This document shows positions 3,544 to 41,462 of a stretch of 64,000 nt of DNA, one piece after another (the first letter of the stretch is position 1; the number at the start of each line of letters is the position of its first letter). The notes beneath the pieces are model-generated. The model was not told the DNA's origin. It made no database searches and was given only the letters and a program-made list of their open reading frames with translations. The DNA comes from Lachnospiraceae bacterium. GTDB lineage: Bacteria > Bacillota > Clostridia > Lachnospirales > Lachnospiraceae. The stretch is taken from the NCBI GenBank assembly GCA_900766925.1, contig CAAFXG010000316.1, positions 3,735 through 67,734 on the forward strand, in the 5' to 3' direction. Position numbers and translations under genes: made by a program.

Positions 3544-4980
3544 ATGGTTAATATCATTTGTGAGATTTCAAAATATTTAATCATTTTATTTATGATTTTA
3601 TATACGGTAAAATGTTTTTCTATTTTGTCATCCAAGGACGAAGATAAAAAACGTAAAAAACTCAATAAACAGATTGTATATGTTTTTATCATACATTTTT
3701 TGTGCTACCTGACTCTGTACCTGAGATTGCATCAGATAAAAATTCTTATTTTTTATCTTGCACAGATATTTGTAGCGATACTTTACATGGTAATATATCA
3801 TTCCATATACAAGGAATCTTCGAGATTATTAACTAATAATACAGCCTTTATGCTGCTTATAGGTTATACTATACTTACAAGACTCGATTTTAATAATGCA
3901 GTTAAGCAGTTTGTAATGGCTACGGCAGGCCTTGTAATTTCAGCTTTTATCCCGTATATCATGCTAAAGTGGAAGAATATTAAGAATATGGGAACAGCAT
4001 ATGGAATAATAGGTTTGCTTTTCCTGCTTACTGTATTTATACCGGGAATAGGAAAGGCACAGTATGGTTCGCGGAACTGGATTCAAATAGGAAGCTTCGG
4101 AATGCAGCCTATGGAATTTGTCAAAATCATATTTGTGTTCTTTGTTGCCAGTATGCTTGTCAAGGCAATTACACTAAAGGATTTGCTTATTAATGCATTG
4201 ATATCGGCTGCATTCATGCTGGTGCTTGTGCTTGAGAAGGATCTTGGTGCTGCAGTTATCTTTTATGTAACTTATGTTTTTATGGTATATTTAGCAACCT
4301 CCAGGGTTATTTTCCTTATAAGCGGAATTTCTCTGGGGGCACTGGCAGTCAGTGCCGGGTATTTGTTGTTTAAGGATTCGTTGTTCCGGCATGTTCTGGT
4401 AAGAGTTGAAGCCTGGCAGGATCCGTTTGCACATATTGACGGTAGTGGATACCAGGTAGCCCAGTCGTTATTTGCACTTGGAACGGGAGGATACACAGGC
4501 TCGGGACTATGTATGGGTAAGGCAAATACTATTCCGGTTGCAAGCAGTGACTTCATATTCTCAGCAATTTGTGAAGAACTTGGTGTCATATTTGGTCTTG
4601 CACTTATTCTTGTTCTGGTGAGCATATTTATTTCATTTGCAAATGTAGCTATGAAATGTAGGAATCCATTTTATAAATATGTTGCATTCGGATTCGCATC
4701 AATATTTAGCATACAAACTCTGCTTAACCTTGGTGGTGTTACCAAATTCATACCTTCCACGGGTGTCACACTTCCTTTGATAAGCTATGGTGTAAGTTCT
4801 GTATTGAGTACATTAATTATATTTTCAATTGTTCAGGGAGTTTATGTAATTACAAGTAAAGAGGCGGATAAAATTGAAAAAGAAAGAGAAAGAATCATTA
4901 AACGCGAAGCCCTTGCTAACGGAGGAGGAGTTCCTGGAGAGAGAGCAACAAAGGGCAAAAAACAACAAAATAAAGAATAA
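3544..4980 (+). CDS. SEDS family glycosyltransferase (FtsW/RodA/SpoVE)
   Basis: 478 aa, polytopic. Motifs include GSRNWIQIGSFGMQPMEFVKI, SDFIFSAICEELG and TGVTLPLISYG. Confidence 0.85.
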   Translation: MVNIICEISKYLIILFMILYTVKCFSILSSKDEDKKRKKLNKQIVYVFIIHFLCYLTLYLRLHQIKILIFYLAQIFVAILYMVIYHSIYKESSRLLTNNTAFMLLIGYTILTRLDFNNAVKQFVMATAGLVISAFIPYIMLKWKNIKNMGTAYGIIGLLFLLTVFIPGIGKAQYGSRNWIQIGSFGMQPMEFVKIIFVFFVASMLVKAITLKDLLINALISAAFMLVLVLEKDLGAAVIFYVTYVFMVYLATSRVIFLISGISLGALAVSAGYLLFKDSLFRHVLVRVEAWQDPFAHIDGSGYQVAQSLFALGTGGYTGSGLCMGKANTIPVASSDFIFSAICEELGVIFGLALILVLVSIFISFANVAMKCRNPFYKYVAFGFASIFSIQTLLNLGGVTKFIPSTGVTLPLISYGVSSVLSTLIIFSIVQGVYVITSKEADKIEKERERIIKREALANGGGVPGERATKGKKQQNKE

Positions 4981-7933: not shown

Positions 7934-8017
7934 GCCGGTGTGTCGGAATTGGCAGACGAGGCAGACTCAAAATCTGTTGATGGCAACATCGTGCGGGTTC
8001 AAGTCCCGCCACCGGCA
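7934..8017 (+). tRNA. tRNA-Leu, anticodon CAA (type II, long variable arm)
   Basis: Hand-folded cloverleaf. Acceptor GCCGGTG/CACCGGC, anticodon stem GCAGA/TCTGT with loop CTCAAAA, 15-nt variable arm (GATG/CATC), T-arm GCGGG-TTCAAGT-CCCGC, discriminator A. CCA is not encoded. Confidence 0.93.
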
Positions 8018-8020
8018 TTG

Positions 8021-8067
8021 AATGAGGAAATAGCTAGTTGATATGTCTAGGTATTTCCTCATTTTTT
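8021..8067 (+). terminator. Intrinsic terminator after tRNA-Leu
   Basis: Stem AATGAGGAAATA (8021-8032) pairs with TATTTCCTCATT (8052-8063) and runs into a T-tract. Confidence 0.8.
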
Positions 8068-24732: not shown

Positions 24733-26433
24733 ATGGAACACAAAAAGATTAAACTAATAAACTCAGTTAAAACAAGAGTAATTACTGCAATGTTTTTAAT
24801 GGCATTATTAACGGGAATAGCCTTACTGGTTATGATTATTCCTAGCTTTAAGAAAACCTTAAATAATGACACCAAAAGCTATATGACCGATATGGCAAAG
24901 GCTTACGGAATCATGTTAGATGAAGAAAAAAACCTTGTTGGCCTTTCAGAGACATTATCTCCGGACAATCTGTCAGAAGCAGTTGGCGGAGTGAAGGTTA
25001 ATGGTTTGAAATCAAGTTACATATATGTTGTAAGTGCAAACGGAACCATGCTTTATCATCCTACGGCAGATAAAATCGGTAAATCTGTTGAAAATGCTGC
25101 AGTACTTGCAACTGTAGATAAAATTTCAAAAGGGCAGAAGGTAGAAAATGAGGTTATCGAATATGATTTCAAGGGTGTTACGAAGTATGCCGGAATATAT
25201 GTCAATGATGCTCAGGATTTTATTGTAGTTGTAACGGCCGATGAAAAAGAGGTTATGGCTCCGCTTAACTTAGTAATTAATAAGACAGTTATCAGCCTGA
25301 TTATTGTCCTTGGACTGATAATTGTAATTGGCTCATTTATTGCTTACAGACTAATTAAACCAATTAACGAAATTGCCATGGTAGCTTCTGACTTGGCAGA
25401 TATGAATTTTGCGGAACATCCAAAGCTTAACCTACTCGGAAAGCATAAGGATGAGGTAGGACATATGGCCCGTTCGCTTGAATATCTCAGGAGTGAGCTT
25501 GTTGAGGCCTTCATATCCATAAAAGCTAAGAGTGATGAGGTTATGAATGCTTCCACATCACTTACCTCTGATGCAGCTGAAACTACAATAACAATGGAGC
25601 AGGTTGAAAATGCCGTAAATGATATTGCCGAAGGCGCAAACTCACAAGCTGCGGAAACTCAGAAAGCAACTGATAATGTAATTATTATGGGAAATATGGT
25701 TAAGGATACCAATGAGGAGGTTAATAATCTTCTTACATTTGCCCGGGAAATACAACTTTCAGTTAACGAAGCCAAGGAGGTTCTGCGTAATCTGGAAGCA
25801 GTTAATAACAATGCAAAGGAATATATTGATATTATTGCAAATCAGACCAATACTACAAATGAATCAGCACTTAAGATAAGTGAGGCTACCAGACTTATTA
25901 CAGCTATTGCCGAAGAAACCAACCTGCTTTCCCTCAATGCATCCATTGAAGCTGCAAGAGCCGGTGAACACGGAAGAGGCTTTGCGGTTGTGGCTGCTGA
26001 AATTCAGACGCTTGCAGAACAATCCAATGAATCTGCAAAGCAGATAGAAATAATTATTCAACAGTTACTTTCAGATTCTGAAAAGGCCGTTGAAACAATG
26101 TCAGATGTCAAGGATATTATTAATATTCAAAGTGAGCATGTAGCTCAGACTGACACTGCCTTTAACAGAATTTCTGACGGAATTACCGAATCAATCAAAG
26201 GAATTAATACAATTTCTGACAAAACCTCAAGTCTTGATTCTGCCAGAATAAATGTGGTTGACATTGTTCAGAATCTTACTGCAATTGCAGAGCAGAATGC
26301 TGCAGATACAGAGGAAACATCAGCGTCAACAACAGAGGTAACAGCAATTGTAGAAGGTATTTCCGATAAGTCCGAATCACTTCGTAAGGTTGCAGGAGCT
26401 CTTGACGAGGGTATATCAATTTTCAGATACTAA
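24733..26433 (+). CDS. Methyl-accepting chemotaxis protein (Cache-like sensor, HAMP, MA domain)
   Basis: Two TM helices flank a roughly 150-aa sensor domain. The conserved signalling hairpin reads [38 protein letters not shown]. Confidence 0.9.
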
Positions 26434-26456: not shown

Positions 26457-26648
26457 ATATAAAAAAAGCGTGATTCTGTCGGCACCGGCTGTATATATAG
26501 CTAATAAAAAGACCGTTTGGCAACGTCAGCACTTAACGAGCGTGTTTTTAGACGAGTTTAGTACTGTTACGTTGACAACCGAGCGGGAGTAAGTCTTATT
26601 ATTAGCTATATATACAGCCGGTACCGACAGAATCACGTTTTTTTATAT
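26457..26648. repeat. Giant hairpin element copy 1: about 53-bp stem with A-tract/T-tract flanks and a 79-nt apical core
   Basis: I paired it base by base. Positions 26461-26513 pair with 26593-26644 with only an A.A (26508/26598) and a C.A (26483/26623) mismatch. The core 26514-26592 is homologous (as reverse complement) to the core of copy 2. Confidence 0.8.
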
Positions 26649-26715
26649 TCATACATTGTTTTTTGGTATATTTTGTGATATTTTATAGAAGAGTATGTTT
26701 ATTTGGAGGTTTGTA

Positions 26716-28020
26716 ATGAGAGAATATTCTACACAAATGGAAGCGGCAAGAAAAGGAATTATTACACCCGAATTAAAAAAGGTTGCAGATAAAGAAAAAA
26801 TGTCTGTAGATGAATTATTGCCATTAGTTGCAAGTGGTAAAGTTGTTATTTGTGCTAACAAAAATCATAAATGTCTTGAACCACAGGGTGTGGGCTCAAT
26901 GCTTACAACCAAAATTAATGTAAATCTTGGTGTTTCGAAGGATTGCAAGGATTATGATATAGAAATGAAAAAGGTTATGGAAGCAGTCGATATGGGTGCA
27001 CATGCAATAATGGATTTGTCATCACATGGTAATACTATTCCGTTTAGAAGAAAACTCACCTCGGAATGTCCTGTTATGATAGGAACCGTGCCTGTATATG
27101 ATTCTGTTATACACTATCAGAGGGATCTTGCAACCCTCACTGCAAAGGATTTTATAGATGTTGTGCGTCTTCACGCCGAAGATGGTGTTGATTTTGTTAC
27201 ACTTCACTGCGGAATTACCCGTAAGACTATAGAACAAATTAAAAATCACAAGCGTAAGATGAATATAGTATCAAGAGGCGGTTCTCTCGTCTTTGCATGG
27301 ATGACGATGACCGGTAACGAAAATCCATTTTATGAATATTATGACGAGATATTAGATATATGCAGAGAATATGATGTTACAATTTCACTTGGAGATGCGT
27401 GCCGCCCGGGTTGTCTTGCTGACGCATCGGATGTATGCCAGATTGAAGAGCTGGTTCGGCTTGGAGAGCTTACCAAACGTGCATGGGAAAAGGATGTACA
27501 GGTTATGGTTGAAGGTCCCGGACATATGCCTATGGATCAGATTGCAGCCAATATGAAGCTTCAACAGACAATTTGTATGGGAGCACCATTTTATGTACTC
27601 GGACCGCTTGTAACAGATATTGCACCGGGATATGACCATATTACATCAGCTATCGGAGGTGCAATTGCTGCAGCTTCAGGTGCAGCGTTTCTGTGCTATG
27701 TTACACCTGCTGAGCATTTGGCACTTCCTAATGTTGAAGATGTAAAGCAGGGTATAATCGCATCTAAGATTGCAGCCCACGCGGCTGACATTGCCAAGGG
27801 AATAAGAGGTGCAAGAGATATAGACGACAGGATGGCTGACGCAAGACGGGCTCTTGACTGGGAAACACAGTGGGAGTGTGCCATAGATCCTGATACTGCC
27901 AGGGCAATCCGTGATGACAGAAGTCCTGAGCATGATGATACATGCTCAATGTGCGGTAAATTCTGTGCCGTAAGGAGTATGAATAAGGCGTTAGCAGGTG
28001 AATACATAGATATTTTATAA
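26716..28020 (+). CDS. thiC: Phosphomethylpyrimidine synthase ThiC
   Basis: The sequence is colinear with ThiC, for example [12 protein letters not shown] and the C-terminal Fe-S motif [11 protein letters not shown] prefer ATG 26716 (RBS GGAGG) over 26695. Confidence 0.9.
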
Positions 28021-38218: not shown

Positions 38219-40702
38219 ATGGATAATAAATATTTATATGATGCATTTATAAGCTACAGACACACAGAAATAGATAAGTTTGTAGCTGAAACCTTACATA
38301 AGGAATTAGAATCATTTAAATTACCCAAAAAGCTTCGTAAAACAGGTGGTAGAGCAAGAACAAAAATAAACAGAGTATTTCGTGATAAGGATGAGCTTCC
38401 TTTAACCAGCAATCTTGAAGATCCAATTATTAATGCATTAGAGCAATCGGAATTTCTTATTGTAATCTGCTCGCCAAGACTTCCGGAATCAATCTGGTGC
38501 CAAAAAGAGATTGAAACATTTATAAGCATGCATGGAAGGCACAAGGTTCTAGCCGTTCTTATAGAAGGCGAACCTGACGAGTCCTTCCCTGATGCACTTT
38601 TATTTGATAATGTAACTGTACAGAATGAAGACGGTTCAACAAGTATCATCAAAAAACCTGTTGAACCACTTGCAGCAGACTTCAGGGGCTCAACCAAAAA
38701 GCAGATTAAAAAAGCTATGAAATCGGAAATATTAAGACTGCTTGCTCCAATGTTCGATCTGTCGTATGATGATTTAAAGCGACGCCACAGAGAAAGGAAA
38801 ATACGTAAAATAATAGGTGTATCTGTAGCCGTATCCATTGCAAGTATATTGTTTGCCGGCTACAGCGCAATTATGGCTCATAAAATTCAAAAACAGAATA
38901 TAAAAATTGAACAACAGTCACAGGAGATAGAAGCTCAAAATGAAAATCTGAAAATACAGGCTGAGGAAATTGAGGCACAGAATCAAAATCTTAAGCTTGA
39001 GCAGGCAAGAAGCTTAGCAAAGAACGCCGAAAATCTCCTTGCCAGGGACGACAGATATGGTGCTGTTAAACTGGCTTACGAAGCTGTAACGGATTATGAA
39101 GGTATGGAAATGCCTCTTACCCCGGAGGGCAGACTTGCACTGACCGAGTGCCTTGGTCTTTATGATGGTTGTTCAAATGTAAGTGCTGTTAAGCAGCTTG
39201 AAACACCCGGCATTATAGATTCAATAAAGGTGTCACCTGAAAAAGATTTATTACTTACCCTGGACAGTATCGGAAACCTTATACTATGGAATGTATCAGA
39301 CAGTAATAAGCTTATCAGTATAACAGAGCCAAATGGAATTCTGTCATACGATTTTATAAATGAAGATTCATTTTTCTATTTAAATAACGAAAATAAACTA
39401 ATAAAGGTTAATATAGCAGACAAAAACGAAACATTATATACAAGCTCAGATTCAATATTTGGAGATATTTATAATGCAATTTCAACTCCTGATGGTAAAA
39501 AAATAATTGTCCGTGAGATGTATTCATATGTGGTTCTGGATGCAAAAAATCTTACGGAAATATCAAGGTATGACGTACCATATGATATAGTCAATACTAA
39601 AATTATGTGTTCAGATGATTCCTCTGAGGCATACATTTTTGCACAAAATGAGGATGACGGATTATCTGTAATCTCCTTTAATATCTCTGACGGAAGTCAG
39701 ATTATTCAAAGCGATGCACCTGCCGGTATAATTTCCGATGTATGTAACAATTCAACCGGTATTTATGTACTCAGCTTTGATTTTGCAAGCTATAATTCTT
39801 TAAAGTCCGTAGTAACAGCCTATGACAGGACAACAGGTGAAATTAAATGGACAAGAGAAGAGGACGCAGTAGTAGCAAATAAGATGTATTATTCTAACAA
39901 GGACGGTAATGGTTTCATACTTGTGGTATCAGACCACGAGAGCCGGTTAATTGATGCAGGAACTGGCGAACAGATTAAATATTATATTACGGATACCGAA
40001 GCTGTTACCTGTAAGCTGAGCCAAAACGGTGATTTTATATTATATACTTCCGATGGTGTATGTCATTATATAAATACTACAAAGGATAAAATGGATGTAG
40101 GTCTTCAAACCATAGTATGTAACAATATTTCATTATTGGATATCACAACCTCCGGATGTGTTGGTGTACCGGAAAATGATAATCGTGTAATTATCTACAC
40201 ATATCGAAGAAACCTCGACTCAGCAGTATTTGATGGCGAACTCGCAGAAGCTTTAACAACAAATGAAACTGATGATTCCATACTTAATGAATGGGGCAAA
40301 GAAAACGGAATTGAAAGAGCTGCATTTATAAGTACATACTTAAATATTCCTGATGCAAACCTTGTTTTAGTTGCTTTCGTTGATGAATCCATTGAATTCT
40401 ACAGAGCTGATACAATGGAGTTTCTGACACATTACGATGATTTTAATGCAATGATGTGTGATTACTATGGTGAAGTAGATGGCTTATACTATATAACAAC
40501 CGTTACGGAAGGAATAGCTGTAGATAAAGACGGAAATATAATAAGCAGAATTGATGAAATGTGTGGTCTCTCTAAAGATTTGAAGCAGGTGGTTGTCTAT
40601 GGCCGTGATGAAAACGCCAAGCAGTGCCGGATTTCAATTCCTATCTACTCATTTGAAGAAATAATAAATCGTACCAAAGAATTCCTTGGTACAGAGGAAT
40701 AA
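38219..40702 (+). CDS. TIR-domain transmembrane protein with coiled coil and beta-propeller-like C-terminal region
   Basis: aa 5-135 read YDAFISYRHTE...VFRDKDELPL...FLIVICSP...SIWCQKEIE (TIR_2-like). KRRHRERKIRK is followed by a TM helix IIGVSVAVSIASILFAGYSAIMA (aa 198-220). A QNxNLK coiled coil follows, then about 550 aa with WD40-like strands (for example GNLILWNV). Confidence 0.8.
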   Translation: MDNKYLYDAFISYRHTEIDKFVAETLHKELESFKLPKKLRKTGGRARTKINRVFRDKDELPLTSNLEDPIINALEQSEFLIVICSPRLPESIWCQKEIETFISMHGRHKVLAVLIEGEPDESFPDALLFDNVTVQNEDGSTSIIKKPVEPLAADFRGSTKKQIKKAMKSEILRLLAPMFDLSYDDLKRRHRERKIRKIIGVSVAVSIASILFAGYSAIMAHKIQKQNIKIEQQSQEIEAQNENLKIQAEEIEAQNQNLKLEQARSLAKNAENLLARDDRYGAVKLAYEAVTDYEGMEMPLTPEGRLALTECLGLYDGCSNVSAVKQLETPGIIDSIKVSPEKDLLLTLDSIGNLILWNVSDSNKLISITEPNGILSYDFINEDSFFYLNNENKLIKVNIADKNETLYTSSDSIFGDIYNAISTPDGKKIIVREMYSYVVLDAKNLTEISRYDVPYDIVNTKIMCSDDSSEAYIFAQNEDDGLSVISFNISDGSQIIQSDAPAGIISDVCNNSTGIYVLSFDFASYNSLKSVVTAYDRTTGEIKWTREEDAVVANKMYYSNKDGNGFILVVSDHESRLIDAGTGEQIKYYITDTEAVTCKLSQNGDFILYTSDGVCHYINTTKDKMDVGLQTIVCNNISLLDITTSGCVGVPENDNRVIIYTYRRNLDSAVFDGELAEALTTNETDDSILNEWGKENGIERAAFISTYLNIPDANLVLVAFVDESIEFYRADTMEFLTHYDDFNAMMCDYYGEVDGLYYITTVTEGIAVDKDGNIISRIDEMCGLSKDLKQVVVYGRDENAKQCRISIPIYSFEEIINRTKEFLGTEE

Positions 40703-40735: not shown

Positions 40736-40939
40736 ATAAAAAACTGCCTGTGGCATAGGTTTTCCGCCCGGCAGTATATATGTATATGAACTAAGACACG
40801 CTCTCGCTCGGTTGTTCACGTAACGGTACTAAACTCGCGTAAAATGCACGCTCGTTAAGTGCCGACGTTCTCAAACGGTCTTAGTTCATATACATATATA
40901 CTGCCGGGCAGAAAACCTATGCCACAGGCAGTTTTTTAT
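40736..40939. repeat. Giant hairpin element copy 2: 62-bp stem with A-tract/T-tract flanks and an 80-nt apical core
   Basis: Positions 40736-40797 pair with 40878-40939 with a single C.A mismatch (40765/40910). The core 40798-40877 matches the reverse complement of the copy 1 core at about 65 of 80 hand-aligned positions. Confidence 0.8.
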
Positions 40940-41020
40940 TGTACAAATAATTATAAGAGCGTTTTAACGGACTTATAAAATGGTATATTATAACTGTTCA
41001 AGAGCAGACCGGTCAGAATA

Positions 41021-41116
41021 CGAATATTTGTTCGAAATAAATATTGACAAACGAACAAATGTACGTTATATTATATACAAGTCAATCGAACAGACGTTTA
41101 CAAGAACATTTGTTTA
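41021..41116. promoter_or_regulatory. Cluster of four LexA (Cheo box) operator candidates overlapping a sigma-A promoter
   Basis: The boxes are CGAATATTTGTTCG (41021-41034), CGAACAAATGTACG (41052-41065), CGAACAGACGTTTA (41087-41100) and AGAACATTTGTTTA (41103-41116), against the consensus CGAAC-N4-GTTCG. The promoter is TTGACA (41044-41049), 17-nt spacer, TATATT (41067-41072). Confidence 0.55.
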
Positions 41117-41135: not shown

Positions 41136-41462
41136 ATGAGAACACATGATACAGCTTATTTTATTCATAGAAATTTAAAATCAATTCTTGGAGGAATTAT
41201 TCTTTTACTTGTTTTAGGTATTCTTATTCTTGGAGTTTTTAATATTAACAGCAAGGCTTCAAATTATAATCAGAAGTATTTCAAGTGTATAGATATTTGC
41301 TATGAAGATACACTTTGGACAATTGCAGAAGAATATATGACAGAAGAGTATAAATCAGTTAATGATTACATCGAAGAAGTTAAGAGTATTAATGGTCTTA
41401 CAAGCGATAAAATTTACAGTGGTGCGACCTTAGTTGTTCCATACTACGCAGCACCCATGTAA
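41136..41462 (+). CDS. Small TM + LysM protein, YneA-like SOS cell-division inhibitor candidate
   Basis: 108 aa from ATG 41136 (RBS AAGGAGG 8 nt upstream). N-terminal TM helix ILGGIILLLVLGILILGVF. C-terminal LysM domain YEDTLWTIAEEY...INGLTSDKIYSGATLVVP. Confidence 0.65.
   Translation: MRTHDTAYFIHRNLKSILGGIILLLVLGILILGVFNINSKASNYNQKYFKCIDICYEDTLWTIAEEYMTEEYKSVNDYIEEVKSINGLTSDKIYSGATLVVPYYAAPM

Follow-up and report, generated by a model that had tools for sequence, protein, structure and literature searches.

Palindromic hairpin repeats with a conserved branched core and locus-specific arms in Lachnospiraceae and related Clostridia

The described systems that come closest to the hairpins reported here are the REP/REPIN elements (RAYT, Y1/HUH-mobilised) and the bacterial MITEs. 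A REPIN is defined by two inverted conserved REP sequences at its ends with a variable spacer between them, and compensatory changes are common in REPIN hairpins (PMC3116915). Our hairpin family resembles the REP/REPIN elements in being short, non-coding, intergenic and multi-copy, in forming long single-stranded DNA or RNA hairpins, in carrying no transposase inside and in having irregular hairpins of the kind recognised as single strands; its hairpin, too, is conserved by compensatory changes. However, whereas in REPINs the 16-mer REP ends are conserved and the spacer is variable, the hairpins described here keep their centre and have ends that are specific to each locus. Moreover, the family is without a GTAG-type 5′ tetranucleotide, and its apex is a three-way junction, not a simple loop. 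No fixed flanking tetranucleotide was found; five of eight left flanks end in AAC or TAC, which is unconvincing. Bacterial MITEs (Correia/NEMIS, ERIC, RUP, BOX) are likewise small non-autonomous palindromic intergenic repeats that can form RNA or DNA hairpins and take on terminator or processing-site roles, but the members of a MITE family share their terminal inverted repeats and are flanked by direct target-site duplications; we saw neither feature in our family. It also differs from IS200/IS605-type elements, having one central hairpin (two adjacent ones in Parasporobacterium) and not subterminal hairpins at both ends. In other words, the usual layout is turned around: the branched apex is the conserved part, and the ends vary. 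The first-pass annotation of this DNA had spoken of an undescribed element class, which is an overstatement, as the hairpins belong among bacterial palindromic intergenic repeats (REP/REPIN, MITE-like). Its narrower claim that they are not classical MITEs was correct: it is the centre that is conserved, and the stems are different from copy to copy and yet remain complementary.

The window, that is, the whole 64-kb stretch of DNA that was analysed, is ordinary core chromosome of a spore-forming Firmicute with about 36% GC and nearly all genes on the leading strand, among them ruvB, zapA, spoIIGA, sigE, cspB, thiC, recU, nadE, miaB, mutS and mutL as well as miaA, mreCD, minCD and rodA. In a Pfam scan of 50 of its 52 open reading frames (two at the 3′ end were omitted), no transposase, integrase, reverse transcriptase, HUH protein or invertase was detected. 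The source lineage is poorly sampled, since the nearest non-self homologue of the TIR protein encoded upstream of one of the hairpins is only 44% identical; it is found at a locus with different synteny. When the window was scanned with a repeat finder, two giant hairpins were identified, referred to as copies 1 and 2, and beyond these there was no comparable inverted repeat in the 64 kb.

Copy 2 (40736-40939) has arms at 40736-40797 and 40878-40939 that are 62 nt long and 98% complementary and enclose an 80-nt loop, the sole arm mismatch being C40765 / A40910. The repeat finder thus returned the same coordinates as the first reading by eye, which had described 62-bp arms with a single C.A mismatch. 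The entire element folds at -135.5 kcal/mol compared to -51.3 +/- 3.8 kcal/mol for shuffled sequences; at z = -22 the fold is not due to chance, and the 204-base hairpin is confirmed as genuine. The left arm, to which no strand is assigned, begins with an A-run (40738-40743) followed by a GC-rich outer segment, CTGCCTGTGGCATAGGTTTTCCGC, while its inner segment opens with the CCGGCAGTATATAT box (40768-40781) and closes with AAGAC. The right arm, also without a strand, includes the complement of the box (40894-40907) and a T-run (40932-40937). Between them lies the conserved core (40798-40877, minus strand), a three-way junction in which P2 is a long imperfect hairpin and P3 a mini-hairpin. The family-defining hairpin (40818-40868, minus strand) has the form GGCAC-UUAACGAG-CG...CG-CGAGUUUAG-UACC, includes tandem G.A pairs as well as a U.U mismatch and scores 57.4 bits (E about 1e-11) with our covariance model R1. 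P3, the mini-hairpin GC[GAGA]GC, occupies 40798-40809 on the minus strand, where it reads GAGCGAGAGCGU.

Copy 1 is less regular. Its arms (26462-26513 and 26593-26644, neither assigned to a strand) are 52 nt long and 94% complementary with a 79-nt loop, and the palindrome runs 6 nt further outward past these coordinates, counting ATATAAAAAAA / TTTTTTTATAT. A T-run ends the right arm (26638-26644). The arms were thought at first to have a single mismatch; the actual count is three (G26468/T26638, C26483/A26623 and A26508/A26598). The core (26514-26592, plus strand) is degenerate, its distal stem and P3 being broken, and its covariance-model score of 51.4 bits is below that of copy 2, which agrees with the core consensus. 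The two cores are inverted relative to each other, exactly as proposed earlier: the reverse complement of the copy 2 core matches copy 1 at 66 of 80 positions versus 42 on the same strand, and the three identical core blocks noted by eye are present in both copies. The arm sequence common to the two consists only of a 14-nt box, CCGGC(A/T)GTATATAT (the CCGGCWGTATATAT box, found in the four window arms only), plus AAGAC. The C.A mismatch with C on the left arm, shared by both copies, had been read as a strand signal. This does not hold: because of the inversion, the mismatch falls on opposite strands, as G.U on the core reference strand in copy 2 and as C.A in copy 1.

Both hairpins occupy the positions of transcription terminators. 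Copy 1 follows an MCP gene and precedes thiC; at copy 2 the corresponding genes encode a TIR-propeller and a LysM protein. Both begin 18-32 nt past the stop codon of the preceding gene (stops at 26431-26433 for copy 1 and 40700-40702 for copy 2). In each, a GC-rich outer stem stands between an A-run and a T-run downstream of a gene, as in an intrinsic terminator. A consensus terminator scan allows loops of 3-8 nt only, so that both copies are invisible to it; no second terminator-like site is present in either intergenic region. As GC-rich outer stems are flanked by an A-run on one side and a T-run on the other, both copies are expected to work as intrinsic terminators in both directions, or as insulators, irrespective of the direction of the core. 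Bidirectional intrinsic terminators indeed share with them the GC-rich stem between the two runs directly after stop codons, but the window copies differ in having a 52-62 bp stem and a structured 80-nt loop. Element-free hairpins in the same sequences have stems of 12-19 bp and loops of 3-11 nt; one such reference in the window is an ordinary terminator hairpin (8021-8063) with a 17-bp stem, located after a tRNA (7934-8017).

Several features of the genes flanking the two copies are worth recording separately. The distance from copy 1 to thiC (start at 26716) is only about 70 nt, and there is no TPP riboswitch match in Rfam for this gene (window 26645-28020), an unusual situation for thiC in a Firmicute. 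The LysM gene (41136-41462) is preceded by two LexA/Cheo-box-like sites, CGAATATTTGTTCG (41021-41034) and CGAACAAATGTACG (41052-41065), which bracket a strong TTGACA-17-TATATT promoter (window 41021-41072). The TIR + beta-propeller protein (38219-40702) is encoded within a housekeeping run with recU, nadE and a DHH phosphoesterase, and its homologues number more than 2000, with named Acetatifactor (Lachnospiraceae) entries among them.

The window copies are not isolated cases. A pattern made of the two best-conserved core blocks, when scanned against species-representative genomes, identified 12 loci, all of them in Clostridia and mostly in Lachnospiraceae, with Agathobacter, Parasporobacterium, Eubacterium sp. 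and MAGs among the carriers. A tighter pattern, CTTAACGAGCG N4-14 CGAGTTTAGTAC, identified four more clostridial loci in JGI metagenomes. A covariance model of the apical hairpin recovered all of the loci from the pattern scans with scores of 29-61 bits and added a second, inverted copy at locus L008, 200 nt from the first, while on the window it found no copy beyond copies 1 and 2. The prediction that the core would be conserved in further copies is thus confirmed by about 15 other loci, and the window copies are part of a so far uncatalogued palindromic repeat family, non-coding throughout, that is carried by Lachnospiraceae and related Clostridia. For the other genomes, the analysis covered fragments of 1-12 kb. 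Elsewhere, members of the family are found in the rplL-rpoB spacer, in the trailer of tRNA-Tyr, in the 16S leader, in 5′ UTRs and in convergent or divergent spacers, and the neighbouring genes of the copies compared show no functional theme. Neither at the gathering threshold nor at E <= 10 did the two window copies or 13 related loci have a relevant match in Rfam 15, permissive thresholds yielding only spurious miRNA, snoRNA and leader matches. The core produced nothing significant in blastn searches of plasmids and phages, the arms of copy 2 and of the Agathobacter copy (L009), taken as spacer-like phage guides, had no exact match in viral contigs, and we found no description of the hairpin family in the literature searched by sequence words and topic. 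A single motif match in a viral contig was dismissed as a chance match within a LAGLIDADG-like coding sequence.

Rather than an unstructured loop, the core of these elements forms an imperfect hairpin from which a side branch departs on the 3′ side. It folds as a three-way junction with a nearly invariant 10-bp helix, CUUARCGAG / CGAGYUUAG, which carries a U.U mismatch and tandem G.A pairs, and with a small GC[GNRA]GC hairpin. Over 15 hairpins the invariant columns read 5′ C-U-U-A-(R)-C-G-A and 3′ G-A-G-(Y)-U-U-A-G and form the pairs C-G, U-A, U.U, A-U, R-Y, C-G, G.A and A.G. The R-Y pair covaries (A-U, G-C and G.U), and one copy swaps C-G for G-C. The complete architecture is found in eight copies, namely the two window copies, the two copies at L008 (L008A/B), L009, L010, L013 and L017. 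In these, P1 is the long stem; P2 consists of a lower stem, an ACGU/ACGU stem, a CGG/CCG step, the invariant helix and a variable distal stem; and P3 is GC[GNRA]GC with a GAGA, GAAA or GCGA loop, so that its variation stays within GNRA. The ACGU/ACGU stem of P2 covaries to GUGU/ACGC, ACGC/GCGU and GUGC/GCAC. In the eight-copy alignment of the core, 94.5% of cells pair compared to 79% in shuffles and 25-44% in controls with slid partners. Two-sided changes occur at 17 of 28 core pairs, and in total there are 35 two-sided versus 4 one-sided changes; the observed values were reached by none of 500 shuffles. On the reference strand, G.U and A.C pairs in the core are in the ratio of 5:3. The fixed non-Watson-Crick pairs point to a trans-acting factor that recognises the folded single strand, and by analogy with the hairpins bound by HUH/Y1 enzymes this strand would be single-stranded DNA. 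As for known motifs, we rejected a K-turn (the 3-nt bulge is absent), a sarcin-ricin motif (the GAA strand is absent), a hammerhead or twister (there is no conserved unpaired core at the junction) and a binding site for a dimer on double-stranded DNA (half-site spacing ranges from 8 to 30 nt), and also, on sequence or structure, an attC site, a retron ncRNA, an ssDNA promoter and a single-strand origin.

The arms behave quite differently from the core. A long, near-perfect inverted repeat surrounds the core in 14 of the 16 instances examined; only for the two 16S-leader copies (L002 and L012) was no enclosing inverted repeat detected. The layout of a conserved core between stems that differ yet remain complementary, first noticed in the two window copies, thus recurs widely. 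The arms are 24-31 nt long in most genomes and 52-62 nt in the window, and their outer sequences are unrelated between loci. The clearest example is a Parasporobacterium MAG with six near-identical cores (by eye, at most about 3 differences per ~125 aligned bases), each copy having two adjacent motif hairpins and unrelated outer arms. Inner arm segments, as opposed to outer ones, can be common to the copies of one genome (CCGGCWGTATATAT...AAGAC in the window; GCCCGGAC at L008, where the two copies have 8 nt of arm in common). Short segments located between conserved ones also vary between copies and are exactly compensated on the opposite arm, as with CAGCTG / CTGCCG / CGCCG in the Parasporobacterium MAG and likewise in the inner arm of the window copies. 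Neither a direct target-site duplication at the palindrome boundaries of any copy nor family-wide terminal repeats among the loci compared were seen. Since the outer arms are locus-specific and complementary within each copy, they are not inherited with the core, and something keeps the two arms of each copy matched.

The composition of the arm pairs bears on what this might be. RNA-level selection normally tolerates many G.U pairs. In the eight three-way-junction copies, the arm pairs comprise 265 Watson-Crick, 7 G.U, 2 A.C and 4 other pairs, so that only about 2.5% are G.U. Together with the few one-sided changes in the core, such rarity of wobble pairs fits DNA-type complementarity or templating better than selection at the RNA level. 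Intrastrand template switching is known to turn imperfect palindromes into perfect ones by arm-to-arm copying (PMC7202029). The likeness to this quasipalindrome correction is close, in that imperfect inverted repeats are perfected by copying one arm from the other (PMC7202029), but it is a mutational mechanism and not an element, and it has been documented for short stems. By analogy, it may also act on arms of 25-60 bp around a conserved apex.

Based on these observations, we propose that the hairpins are DNA-level palindromic repeats akin to REPINs and MITEs but organised inside-out, with templated arms, and that in the window they serve as bidirectional terminators; we give this reading a probability of about one half. 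According to it, the heritable, selected unit would be the ~80-nt core, which folds as a single strand into the three-way junction, and the long stem is locus-specific and not inherited with it. The near-perfect palindrome would be kept, and probably extended, at the DNA level as one arm is copied from its partner. This would likely happen by intrastrand template switching, or else by fold-back synthesis for which the stable core hairpin provides the nucleus. As for the outermost stem, it may come from the stem of a resident terminator. Action at the level of DNA rather than RNA is the best fit for near-identical multi-copy cores with unrelated arms and for rare wobble pairs, and also for the presence of both core orientations within one co-directional gene run, in the window as well as at L008, and the lack of a gene-function theme. 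Nonetheless, a sense bias of the core, an excess of G.U over A.C and the GNRA-only P3 loop speak against it, hinting at an RNA-level or strand-specific constraint. Template switching by itself is also insufficient, since the conserved mismatches and the side branch have not been erased by it, and selection must be invoked too. Furthermore, a simple outward growth of the palindrome leaves unexplained the variable complementary segments between conserved ones.

If this reading holds, gut Lachnospiraceae carry hairpin repeats that are organised inside-out relative to REPINs and MITEs, in which a conserved structured tip must be recognised by a cellular or selfish factor while the stems are remade at each site. 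They would then be a natural system in which to study the origin and survival of long perfect palindromes on bacterial chromosomes, with template switching or fold-back synthesis as the mechanism. The tip would represent a new structured nucleic-acid motif with a fixed U.U mismatch, tandem G.A pairs and a GNRA branch that awaits its binding partner. Given that the sites are terminator positions, the rplL-rpoB spacer, tRNA trailers and the 16S leader, the elements would probably shape transcript ends in abundant gut species.

The same strand-specific features could be taken to mean that the element works as a structured non-coding RNA, be it an sRNA or a UTR module that acts in cis. In that case the three-way junction would be functional, with the GNRA loop docking on the conserved helix, and the long perfect P1 would be a processing stalk, e.g. 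a substrate of RNase III, as well as a terminator. Strong covariation and fixed non-canonical pairs are typical of RNA motifs, and the P3 loop is always GNRA (GAGA, GAAA or GCGA). In about 10 of 13 decidable cases the core points the same way as its flanking genes, and G.U pairs exceed A.C pairs on the reference strand, although modestly (7:2 in the arms and 12:5 overall, arms plus core). The copy in the 16S leader has been kept between two species with changes in loops only. At the foot of copy 2 there is, in addition, a correctly oriented match to a sigma-70 promoter, TTTATA-18-TATAAT (40950-40979, minus strand), with the T-run at the far end; if active, this weak consensus match would give rise to minus-strand transcripts that begin at the base of the hairpin and read the core in its sense direction. 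Of the expression from opposite strands at the two loci, suggested in the first-pass annotation, this match is the only sign. However, the match lies in an AT-rich region, and the scan that produced it returned 102 promoter-like sites compared to 79 expected from shuffles. Moreover, the transcription around copy 2, around L008B and around the 16S-leader copies runs antisense to them, and the stems are nearly devoid of wobble pairs. An RNA module would also hardly account for near-identical multi-copy cores in one genome having unrelated arms, for neighbouring genes without a functional theme or for the missing Rfam match. We therefore regard this explanation as unlikely.

Another explanation makes do without templating. 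Only the core together with a short inner arm would be mobile and insert into the apical loops of pre-existing hairpins, chiefly intrinsic terminators, whose stems would survive as the outer stems of the element. The outer stems of copy 1, copy 2 and L009 are GC-rich, flanked by A- and T-runs and located where a terminator is expected, and element-free terminators in these genomes have arms of 12-19 bp. If the inner arm is read outward to TCGGCACCGGC (by eye), the outer stem of copy 1 becomes an ordinary 11-bp stem between A7 and T7. Yet there is neither a T-run nor any terminator character in the arms of L008A/B, L010, L013, L017 and Parasporobacterium, and at L009 rplL retains its own separate terminator upstream of the element. 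With 22-30 bp, and with about 60 bp in the window, the arms are longer than those of the element-free hairpins seen, and variable complementary segments occur also inside conserved ones. We consider this scenario unlikely as well. Searches by exact protein match with ThiC and the LysM protein (two start codons for each) and with the TIR protein gave no matches and hence no empty site, and the rplL-rpoB spacers retrieved for Agathobacter L009 through homologues of RplL and RpoB came from other species only, with no exact empty site among them. The spacers fetched in this way accumulate other hairpin repeats. Outer arms might be set at about 22 nt by a ruler, but element-free terminators in these genomes already reach 15-19 bp.

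It is tempting to go further and regard the three-way junction as a hairpin that is recognised and primes its own copying in a novel type of mobile bacterial DNA, a speculation that we hold to be doubtful. Here, only the core and a short inner stem would move, and fold-back synthesis resembling rolling-hairpin replication would copy about 20-30 nt of the flank in inverted form. The outcome might be an inverted instead of a direct target duplication and a new stem layer with each move, which would explain why the stems in the window are about twice as long as elsewhere. Among known systems, there is also a resemblance to the parvoviruses, whose T- or Y-shaped terminal hairpins serve rolling-hairpin replication and occur in flip and flop forms. 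Like our hairpins, parvovirus termini have a long perfect stem with a small asymmetric branched cap and two orientations of the tip, and their stem is templated from one arm, as proposed for ours. Unlike them, however, they are the ends of a linear ssDNA virus cut by an HUH nickase, whereas our family is internal in a bacterial chromosome; no switching of orientation within a locus was seen among the contigs compared, and neither a Rep gene nor any HUH protein was found among the 50 window ORFs scanned.

Finally, an invertible DNA switch (inverton) or flip/flop hairpin, in which the core is inverted between long inverted repeats, would explain the opposite directions of the two window cores. 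In its favour are the 52-62 bp perfect inverted repeats around an asymmetric 80-bp segment and the occurrence of both orientations within one replichore and one intergenic region. Still, it is very improbable given that locus-specific arms leave no common recombinase site, that the core is without a promoter-like element, that the orientation is the same in all three of the independent metagenome contigs that represent one locus (L014-L016) and does not differ between the related species of L002 and L012, that an invertase is absent from the 50 of 52 window ORFs scanned against Pfam, and that an 80-bp spacer is very short for synapsis.

Several of the loci examined revealed additional repeats or structures. 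In the rplL-rpoB spacers of L020-L029 (e.g. L020 1572-2047), contigs with an identical RplL vary by one to three tandem copies of a ~85-nt two-hairpin module made up of ATGCGGCGACTGCCGCAT, AGCCCGCAAGATATTGCGGGCT and GCTTCGAG, a separate VNTR-like family that occupies the same spacer as the L009 element. At L009 itself, three tandem GCTCGTATATAA units (3650-3724, minus strand) are located directly downstream of the Agathobacter copy, before the rpoB promoter. At L014 (2856-3490), the 3′ end of tRNA-Tyr, CGAATCCCTCCCGGCGCACA, recurs within 600 nt as three direct repeats and one inverted repeat, with motif hairpins between them; the inverted one pairs with one of the direct ones, and the resulting stem encloses a multi-hairpin structure of 270 nt (z = -7.9). 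A TwoAYGGAY RNA (RF01731, 57 bits) lies at L013 431-579, about 90 nt from the element copy. In the two species with a 16S-leader copy, the motif hairpin (L002 1516-1566 and L012 3252-3303) is placed about 45 nt upstream of the 16S rRNA on the opposite strand and differs by loop changes only, and near these copies there is a further hairpin, ACACUUAGG...CCUUAGUGU, that retains only the CUUA/UUAG helix with its U.U mismatch.
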